A stretch of 64,000 nt of DNA, taken from Escherichia coli (GTDB lineage: Bacteria; Pseudomonadota; Gammaproteobacteria; Enterobacterales; Enterobacteriaceae). Position 1 is the stretch's first letter; every line of letters begins with the position of its first letter. Location of the stretch: the NCBI RefSeq assembly GCF_050320075.1, contig NZ_CP190018.1, one strand, 5' to 3'. Shown one piece after another: positions 966-41,785 of this stretch. The translations under genes and the position numbers were made by a program. The notes under the pieces were generated by a model that worked only from the letters and a program-made list of their open reading frames with translations, was not told the DNA's origin and searched no databases.

Positions 966-1045
966 GTTGTAGGCCGGATAAGGCTTTTACGCCGCATCCG
1001 GCAGCCGTGGCCTGATATGACGCTCGCGCGTCTTATCAGGCCAAC
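966..1045. repeat. REP/BIME-type palindromic element between infB and rbfA
   Basis: Motif gccggataaggc...gccgcatccggc plus an inverted partner, typical of REP sequences. Confidence 0.55.
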
Positions 1046-2464: not shown

Positions 2465-2516
2465 TGTTAACCGTCTTGCGATAACAGGTCGCTACGAGTA
2501 GAATACTGCCGCTTAA

Positions 2517-2882
<366 letters not shown>

Positions 2883-2897
2883 TTCTTGCGAGTTTCA

Positions 2898-2926
2898 GAA
2901 AAGGGGGCCTGAGTGGCCCCTTTTTT
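2898..2926 (+). terminator. rpsO intrinsic terminator
   Basis: aaaagggggcctgagtggcccctttttt: near-perfect GC hairpin plus T-run immediately after rpsO stop. Confidence 0.8.
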
Positions 2927-3128
2927 CAAGCTGACGGCAGCAATTCACTGGAAACTAATGTATTGTTGCTATGAATGATCTTCCGTTGCAGAGGTTCGCG
3001 CGGCTAATGAGAGGCTTTACCCACATTGGGCTGGGTTAGGGTTGTCATTAGTCGCGAGGATGCGCAGAAGATCGGGTATTAACACCAGTGCCGTAAGGTA
3101 CTGTCTAAGAAAGAGAAAGGATATTACA
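2927..3128 (+). promoter_or_regulatory. pnp promoter/leader region (RNase III-processed autoregulatory leader by established knowledge)
   Basis: About 200 nt untranslated region upstream of pnp with a TTG start; position-based call, motif not verified. Confidence 0.45.
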
Positions 3129-5264
3129 TTGCTTAATCCGATCGTTCGTAAATTCCAGTACGGTCAACACACCGTGACTCTGGAAACCGGCATGATGGCT
3201 CGTCAGGCTACTGCTGCTGTTATGGTTAGCATGGATGACACCGCGGTATTTGTTACCGTTGTTGGCCAGAAAAAAGCCAAACCAGGTCAGGACTTCTTCC
3301 CACTGACCGTTAACTATCAGGAGCGTACCTACGCTGCTGGTCGTATCCCGGGTAGCTTCTTCCGTCGTGAAGGCCGCCCAAGCGAAGGCGAAACCCTGAT
3401 CGCGCGTCTGATTGACCGCCCGATTCGCCCGCTGTTCCCGGAAGGCTTCGTCAACGAAGTTCAGGTTATCGCCACCGTGGTTTCTGTTAACCCGCAGGTT
3501 AACCCGGATATCGTCGCGATGATTGGTGCTTCCGCAGCACTGTCTCTGTCTGGTATTCCGTTCAATGGTCCGATTGGTGCTGCCCGCGTAGGTTACATCA
3601 ATGACCAGTACGTACTGAACCCGACTCAGGACGAGCTGAAAGAGAGCAAACTGGATCTGGTTGTTGCGGGTACTGAAGCCGCTGTACTGATGGTTGAATC
3701 TGAAGCTGAACTGCTGAGCGAAGACCAGATGCTGGGCGCAGTAGTGTTCGGTCATGAACAACAGCAGGTTGTTATTCAGAACATCAATGAACTGGTGAAA
3801 GAAGCCGGCAAACCGCGTTGGGACTGGCAGCCGGAGCCGGTAAACGAAGCGCTGAACGCGCGCGTTGCTGCACTGGCTGAAGCTCGTCTGAGCGATGCTT
3901 ACCGCATCACCGACAAACAAGAGCGTTATGCGCAGGTTGATGTCATCAAATCTGAAACCATCGCGACGCTGCTTGCTGAAGATGAAACCCTGGACGAAAA
4001 CGAACTGGGTGAAATTCTGCACGCTATCGAGAAAAACGTTGTTCGTAGCCGCGTACTGGCAGGCGAACCGCGTATCGACGGTCGTGAAAAAGATATGATT
4101 CGTGGTCTGGATGTGCGTACTGGCGTGCTGCCGCGTACTCACGGTTCTGCGCTGTTTACCCGTGGTGAAACTCAGGCGCTGGTTACCGCAACGCTGGGTA
4201 CTGCACGTGACGCGCAGGTTCTTGATGAACTGATGGGCGAACGTACTGACACCTTCCTGTTCCACTACAACTTCCCTCCGTACTCCGTAGGCGAAACCGG
4301 CATGGTCGGTTCTCCGAAGCGTCGTGAAATTGGTCACGGTCGTCTGGCGAAGCGCGGCGTGCTGGCAGTCATGCCGGATATGGACAAATTCCCGTACACC
4401 GTACGTGTGGTGTCTGAAATCACCGAATCCAACGGTTCTTCTTCTATGGCTTCCGTGTGCGGCGCGTCTCTGGCGCTGATGGACGCAGGTGTGCCGATCA
4501 AAGCTGCTGTTGCGGGTATCGCAATGGGTCTGGTGAAAGAAGGCGACAACTACGTTGTACTGTCTGACATTTTGGGCGACGAAGATCACCTGGGCGATAT
4601 GGACTTCAAAGTTGCGGGTTCCCGCGACGGTATTTCTGCATTGCAGATGGATATCAAAATTGAAGGTATCACCAAAGAGATCATGCAGGTTGCACTGAAC
4701 CAGGCTAAAGGTGCGCGTCTGCATATCCTGGGCGTAATGGAACAGGCGATCAACGCGCCACGTGGCGATATCTCTGAGTTCGCTCCGCGTATCCATACCA
4801 TCAAGATCAACCCGGACAAGATCAAAGACGTTATCGGTAAAGGCGGCTCTGTTATCCGTGCCCTGACCGAAGAAACTGGCACCACTATCGAAATCGAAGA
4901 TGACGGTACTGTGAAGATCGCAGCGACCGACGGCGAGAAAGCGAAACATGCTATTCGTCGTATCGAAGAGATCACTGCAGAAATCGAAGTGGGCCGCGTC
5001 TACAATGGTAAAGTGACCCGTATCGTTGACTTTGGCGCATTTGTTGCCATCGGCGGCGGTAAAGAAGGTCTGGTACACATCTCTCAGATCGCTGACAAAC
5101 GCGTTGAGAAAGTGACCGATTACCTGCAGATGGGTCAGGAAGTACCGGTGAAAGTTCTGGAAGTTGATCGCCAGGGCCGTATCCGTCTGAGCATTAAAGA
5201 AGCGACTGAGCAGTCTCAACCTGCTGCAGCACCGGAAGCTCCGGCTGCTGAACAGGGCGAGTAA
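3129..5264 (+). CDS. pnp: Polynucleotide phosphorylase (PNPase), TTG start
   Basis: ORF translation [21 protein letters not shown]...; 711 aa from TTG at 3129; C-terminal KH/S1 region. Confidence 0.93.
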
Positions 5265-5275
5265 GGTTGCCATTT

Positions 5276-5301
5276 GCCCTCCGCTGCGGCGGGGGGCTTT
5301 T
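5276..5301 (+). terminator. Putative pnp terminator hairpin
   Basis: GC-rich imperfect hairpin gccctccgctgcggcggggggc followed by tttt. Confidence 0.45.
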
Positions 5302-5372
5302 AACCGGGCAGGACGCCTTGTTAGCAACCGGGAACAGGACGTTCATTCAACCGTGGTCTTCGGGAGTGGGAA

Positions 5373-41408: not shown

Positions 41409-41785
<377 letters not shown>

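Follow-up and report, generated by a model that had tools for sequence, protein, structure and literature searches.

Background

The pnp locus of Escherichia coli is a textbook case of layered post-transcriptional control of an exoribonuclease, exerted by RNase III, PNPase, RNase E, CsrA and an antisense RNA. The pnp leader has been characterized by Portier, Regnier, Hajnsdorf, Jarrige and Carzaniga and, with respect to CsrA, by Park 2015. It carries a stem-loop that is cut by RNase III, and this cut starts the PNPase-dependent autoregulation (Fontaine et al. 2016, PMC5029454). The upstream gene, rpsO, ends in the terminator t1 and an RNase E site termed M2 (Regnier & Hajnsdorf 1991), the latter being rate-limiting and located 10 nt downstream of the rpsO stop codon (Le Derout 2010, PMC2834685).

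The antisense RNA of the locus, SraG (psrO, b4449; Rfam RF00082), is expressed in the K-12 strains N3433 and MG1655, and its primary transcript was mapped by cRT-PCR to 216 nt, with a start 42 nt upstream of that of the original 174-nt form. The −10 element of its promoter, PSraG, lies between the pnp Shine-Dalgarno sequence and the TTG start codon, and mutation of this element abolishes SraG. Termination occurs at the rpsO terminator T1, which is used by SraG in the opposite direction. Without SraG, pnp is up by 30%, and SraG inhibits the 30S toeprint on pnp (Fontaine et al. 2016, PMC5029454). RliD in Listeria and ref41 in Enterococcus are likewise antisense RNAs at or near the 5' region of pnpA (PMC5029454); they lack sequence homology to SraG and are analogues only.

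Results and discussion

The rpsO-pnp spacer and its identity with K-12

The window, by which we mean the whole 64,000-nt stretch of E. coli DNA that was analysed, almost certainly holds the E. coli rpsO-pnp intergenic control region, working as already described for K-12. The spacer with SraG is a known system, all its functional parts are identical to those of the K-12 locus, and it carries little weight as a discovery. The rpsO coding sequence (ribosomal protein S15) occupies 2613..2882 (+), with its stop codon at 2880-2882, and pnp (PNPase, 711 aa) occupies 3129..5264 (+) with a TTG start; the ORF list gives the former, and both are supported by the K-12 annotation and by the RefSeq annotation of a strain identical over 2500-3300, in which the gene order is infB, rbfA, truB, rpsO, pnp, nlpI. 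Many complete E. coli chromosomes carry the 801-bp segment 2500-3300 at 100% identity. Of 5426 E. coli genomes, 5425 returned a match, and at least 80% of the query was covered in 5424. A single genome of the 5426 is without a match, and one additional copy of the segment was found on a plasmid record of the same collection. The alignment of 2600-3200 with K-12 is free of indels and contains only three substitutions, none of which falls inside the terminator, the stem, PSraG, the Shine-Dalgarno sequence or the start codon.

Two further elements belong to rpsO. Translation of this gene is autoregulated through the S15 leader element. The Rfam model of the S15 leader (RF00114) matched 2555..2669 (+) with 117.6 bits, spanning the rpsO start codon. 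A promoter-like site at 2476-2504 (TTGCGA, a 17-nt spacer and TAGAAT), returned by a consensus scan, fits the rpsO promoter P1.

A terminator read in both directions

The initial annotation had ended rpsO with a hairpin and T-run at 2898..2926, and these coordinates proved exact in the ViennaRNA fold and the terminator scan, the element being T1 of the published locus (PMC5029454). Positions 2898-2909 pair with 2915-2926 to give 12 base pairs closed by the loop 2910-2914, and the T-run covers 2921-2926. The sequence reads AAAAGGGGGCC-tgagt-GGCCCCTTTTTT, laid out over 2899-2926 as AAAA, GGGGGCC, tgagt, GGCCCC and TTTTTT. This GC-rich stem, with an A-run upstream and a T-run downstream, ends the transcripts of both strands in a U-tract, as is typical of a bidirectional Rho-independent terminator, serving rpsO on the plus strand and SraG on the minus strand. 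The predicted energies are −19.9 kcal/mol (+) and −15.7 kcal/mol (−), and the terminator scan also called this stem for the minus-strand transcript, at 2920..2904 with a T-run behind it. Across genera, a crude regular expression was uninformative about the conservation of this terminator; the spacer lengths ranged from 239 to 353 nt. Between the rpsO stop codon and the terminator, the RNase E site M2 can be placed approximately at 2890..2895 (+), near 2892, because the stop codon is at 2880-2882 and the published site lies 10 nt downstream. No base between the stop codon and the end of the terminator differs from K-12, and the rpsO 3' region shows no difference from the one described in 1991.

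Placement of SraG

SraG had been expected on the opposite strand of this spacer, with both of its ends left unplaced. A K-12 annotation elsewhere would have refuted this expectation, and K-12 b4449 maps exactly here, as does the Rfam match. The RF00082 model matched 2899..3070 (−) over its full length (1-177) with 162.2 bits and E = 1.9e-30, three times the gathering threshold of 50. In K-12 MG1655, sraG is annotated at 3311183..3311398, antisense to pnp, and since the alignment over 2600-3200 is indel-free, these coordinates transfer directly to 3114..2899 (−), giving a 216-nt RNA with its 5' end at 3114 and its 3' end at 2899. The RNA thereby lies between rpsO and pnp, antisense to both, at the same position as in K-12, and its 5' end is 3 nt upstream of the pnp Shine-Dalgarno sequence. 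The size agrees with the cRT-PCR mapping cited above, and the older 174-nt form, which is reflected in the Rfam model, would start near 3072. For annotation purposes, the transferred coordinates are of practical value, as the 5' end of the Rfam model is 42 nt shorter and PGAP/RefSeq carries no sraG annotation in the strain identical over 2500-3300.

The −10 hexamer of PSraG, TAATAT, can be read at 3126..3121 (−), 6 nt from the transcription start, which is a T at 3114 (−); both hexamer and start base are identical to K-12. A sigma-70 consensus scan made no call at PSraG, which has a good −10 and no recognizable −35; the criteria of the scan are too strict for this result to carry information. 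The same over-strict scan found no promoter near a predicted longer antisense start, 339 nt upstream of PSraG (~3453). Overall, the window shares with K-12 sraG the locus, strand, 216-nt length, −10 element, start base, terminator and stem, and differs by two apical-loop substitutions, complementary to those at 3027 and 3029 on the plus strand. Judging by this identity, SraG is probably transcribed in the present strain as well.

The pnp leader hairpin and its predicted RNase III sites

Folding of 2883-3140 (258 nt) gave z = −5.2 on the plus strand, with none of 200 dinucleotide shuffles being as good, and z = −4.5 on the minus strand. The leader, which the initial annotation had taken as the site of RNase III/PNPase autoregulation and had proposed to check by structure prediction, indeed folds far better than its shuffled counterparts, and its length of ~200 nt and RNase III-cut stem-loop correspond to the published element (PMC5029454). 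The stem-loop covers 2977..3073 (+) with an MFE of −47.6 kcal/mol; within it, 2999-3010 and 3045-3056 form 12 uninterrupted base pairs. A long stem-loop, supported by both the single-sequence fold and RNAalifold, followed by a PNPase gene with a UUG start, is what characterizes the autoregulatory element in E. coli, and the stem, Shine-Dalgarno sequence and UUG of the window are identical to those described there. Candidate GGA motifs for CsrA occur at the expected positions, 3058-3060 and 3119-3121. The latter lies within the Shine-Dalgarno sequence AAGGA (3117..3121, +), in keeping with a CsrA site that overlaps this sequence according to Park 2015, as cited by Fontaine et al. 2016 (PMC5029454). 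Only loop SNPs distinguish the leader from its described counterpart, and nothing functional differs.

The two RNase III sites, RIII1 and RIII2, are located 39 and 77 nt downstream of the start of the pnp promoter P2 (Fontaine et al. 2016, PMC5029454). Given the stem geometry and these published distances, the cuts would fall after 3009 (RIII1) and after 3047 (RIII2), because only these positions satisfy both the 38-nt spacing and a 2-nt 3' overhang on the stem; the excised apical fragment would be 38 nt long (3010..3047, +). The predicted staggered cuts are consistent with published transcript lengths and with an RNA-seq peak. The P1-RIII transcript of rpsO is 82 nt longer than P1-t1 (502 versus 420 nt; PMC2834685), and a terminated 3' end near 2927 extended by 82 nt leads to 3009. 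The published rnc/WT peak at K-12 3311286 corresponds to window position 3011, likewise agreeing with the placement of RIII1. As RIII1 is 39 nt downstream of P2, a cut after 3009 would set the P2 start at ~2970-2971, for which TAATGT at 2956..2961 (+) is a candidate −10. The sigma-70 consensus scan, too strict to inform on this point, made no call for P2.

Placed on the sequence features, the K-12 identity and the conservation presented here, the cleavages, transcripts and regulatory effects reported in the literature suggest a model of the locus. Transcription from the rpsO promoter would either stop at the hairpin 2898-2926 or read through into pnp, and P2 would start a second kind of pnp transcript at about 2970, so both kinds would carry the stem-loop 2977-3073. 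RNase III would cut both arms of the stem, after approximately 3009 and 3047, whereupon PNPase would remove the short 5' fragment that is still base-paired. Removal of this fragment would expose the message to RNase E and, at the GGA motifs, to CsrA, by which PNPase would lower its own synthesis, and translation from the weak UUG at 3129 adds a further control point. On the opposite strand, the promoter with its −10 at 3126..3121 would make the 216-nt RNA from 3114 to 2899, which would terminate at the hairpin 2898-2926 as transcribed from the minus strand. SraG, whose full complementarity to the pnp leader extends to within 3 nt of the Shine-Dalgarno sequence, would block 30S binding, create new RNase III sites in the duplex and modestly lower pnp mRNA and protein, by an amount corresponding to the ~1.3-fold change seen on its removal.

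Unequal conservation of the leader and the SraG promoter

Loci for comparison were collected with a 19-mer from the 5' arm of the stem (2989-3007), which returned at least 120 matches. Among the 120 matches listed, 118 are located in an rpsO-pnp spacer, in genera ranging from Escherichia to Photorhabdus, Yersinia, Edwardsiella, Budvicia and Pragia; the remaining two (a Hyphomonadaceae MAG and Burkholderia) were set aside as chance matches. The invariance of the 5' arm 2989-3007 is partly a matter of ascertainment, as it was fixed by the search pattern. The 3' arm, which was unconstrained by the search, is also almost invariant among the matches listed (TGTCATTAGTCGCGAGGATG). RNAalifold on 113 Enterobacterales sequences from these matches returned 27 consensus pairs, 9 of them with compensatory changes. 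Covariation is found at the apical stem and at the base of the hairpin, one pair occurring as G-C in 78 of the listed sequences, A-U in 28 and G-U in 6, and the apical loop is hypervariable across genera. Among the matches listed, several G·U wobbles recur in at least 98 of the 113 sequences, for example a U·G in 110 and a G·U in 112, and the reverse type (A·C) is almost absent from them. In the antisense RNA the conserved G·U pairs would be A·C mismatches, which matches the gap between the hairpin energies of the two strands (−47.6 kcal/mol on the plus and −34.9 on the minus strand); the hairpin is therefore tuned for the pnp-sense strand.

The SraG promoter behaves differently. Among the matches listed, the −10 hexamer TAATAT is present at the same offset in 42 of 110 loci, being kept in Escherichia, Citrobacter, Salmonella, Photorhabdus, Pectobacterium, Brenneria and Buttiauxella and altered in Klebsiella, Enterobacter, Pantoea, Serratia, Yersinia and Edwardsiella. 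The only mildly new point of this work is the much weaker conservation of the SraG promoter compared with the overlapping cis-element. As a tentative reading that we hold at somewhat less than even chance, SraG may have been added in certain lineages only, to a pnp leader that is much older and under stronger constraint. If so, many Rfam "SraG" matches beyond the E. coli group would reflect the pnp leader in mirror image and not be expressed sRNA genes; a match to an antisense sRNA model over a conserved cis-element is not by itself proof of the sRNA in that species.

A stronger version of this reading holds that the minus-strand Rfam match is a mirror image of the conserved leader hairpin also in the present locus, that the antisense RNA is a by-product of weak function and that the pnp strand is the one under selection. 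It has several observations on its side and is nevertheless rather unlikely. Five G·U pairs of the plus-strand hairpin turn into A·C mismatches in the antisense RNA, the energies differ (−47.6 versus −34.9 kcal/mol), and such wobbles are conserved among the matches listed. The contrast between the patchy TAATAT and the invariant hairpin and TTG among the matches listed points the same way, as does the small shift of pnp on removal of SraG, only ~1.3-fold (PMC5029454). Against it, SraG is a promoter-dependent RNA that has been detected in E. coli and for which a start and a terminator of its own have been mapped; in vitro, the 30S toeprint is inhibited by SraG, and mutation of its −10 raises PNPase (PMC5029454). 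With an identical promoter in the window, the question becomes one of the importance of SraG, not of the presence of its gene here.

Still less probable, at perhaps an outside chance, is that SraG is mainly a trans-acting, Hfq-binding sRNA directed at other mRNAs, its overlap with pnp being secondary. Binding of SraG by Hfq at sub-nanomolar affinity and repression of YPK_1206-1205 by the SraG of Yersinia pseudotuberculosis, both as cited in PMC5029454 from Lu 2012/Zhang 2003, speak for such a role, whereas ten predicted E. coli targets were unchanged on SraG overexpression and deletion of hfq had no effect on SraG levels or on pnp control (PMC5029454); the sequence of the window bears nothing on trans targets.

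Some loci of the collection depart from the usual arrangement. Yersinia pestis NCTC5923 (L086) has the leader hairpin and pnp, with no rpsO within 500 nt upstream, which fits the insertion element reported in the rpsO-pnp spacer of Y. pestis (Fontaine et al. 2016, PMC5029454). Further loci (L053, L069, L075; L034; L088) keep the core stem and carry large insertions, either apically in the hairpin or in the gap between hairpin and pnp, the carriers being Symbiopectobacterium, a record labelled Serratia marcescens with the same sequence type, Budvicia and Pragia.

The pnp start codon

The TTG at 3129 lies 203 nt past the T-run of the terminator and 7 nt past AAGGA, much as the initial annotation had it with a spacing of about 200 nt. 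RefSeq, K-12 and all 116 of the 116 Enterobacterales loci examined among the matches listed agree on TTG as the start, and the AAGGA is conserved in Enterobacterales loci among the same matches. A start at the upstream TTG 3042 instead, which would render part of the leader coding and is suggested by a mechanical ORF of 740 aa (3042..5264, +) that extends pnp by 29 codons, has virtually no chance of being correct, being refuted by the 30S toeprint that maps to the UUG at 3129 (Fontaine et al. 2016, PMC5029454) and by the pattern of conservation: 3042-3128 falls inside the RNase III hairpin and lacks protein conservation across genera, AAGGA stands 7 nt before TTG 3129 in all loci among the matches listed, and RefSeq and K-12 both place the start at 3129.

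One further reading frame of the region was considered. A 740-aa ORF on the minus strand (3105..5327) was rejected as an antisense gene; it is codon-aligned with pnp and is a shadow ORF arising from codon bias, remaining open because pnp is free of TTA, CTA and TCA codons and therefore produces no stops on the opposite strand.

Differences from K-12

Two of the three substitutions relative to K-12 are SNPs in the apical loop of the leader hairpin (3027, T versus A; 3029, G versus A; + strand). The predicted fold and the MFE of the hairpin are unchanged on both strands, and a structural effect was accordingly rejected. The exact 77-nt hairpin core allele of the window is found in 776 of 5425 E. 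coli genomes (14% of complete genomes). A further 4648 genomes match at 95-99% identity, and every row sampled from this band was at 97.4%, equivalent to two mismatches in 77 nt and the same number as separates K-12 from the window. One ST131 strain (NZ_CP174453.1) matched the 77-nt core at only 85.7%.

The third substitution, T for C at 3164, is synonymous and lies in pnp. On the minus strand (3167..3162) it turns TTGGCC into TTGACC, a −35-like hexamer 35 nt from the −10 of PSraG. A new antisense promoter created by this SNP was considered and rejected, there being no −10 at a usable spacing, and the change is probably irrelevant.

Elsewhere in the window, the infB-rbfA spacer (972..1042) holds an element of the REP/BIME type, with an Rfam naRNA4 match of 76 bits on the plus strand and 44 on the minus strand, and the RNase P RNA gene rnpB was located at 41409..41785 (+) by Rfam RF00010 with 318.6 bits.
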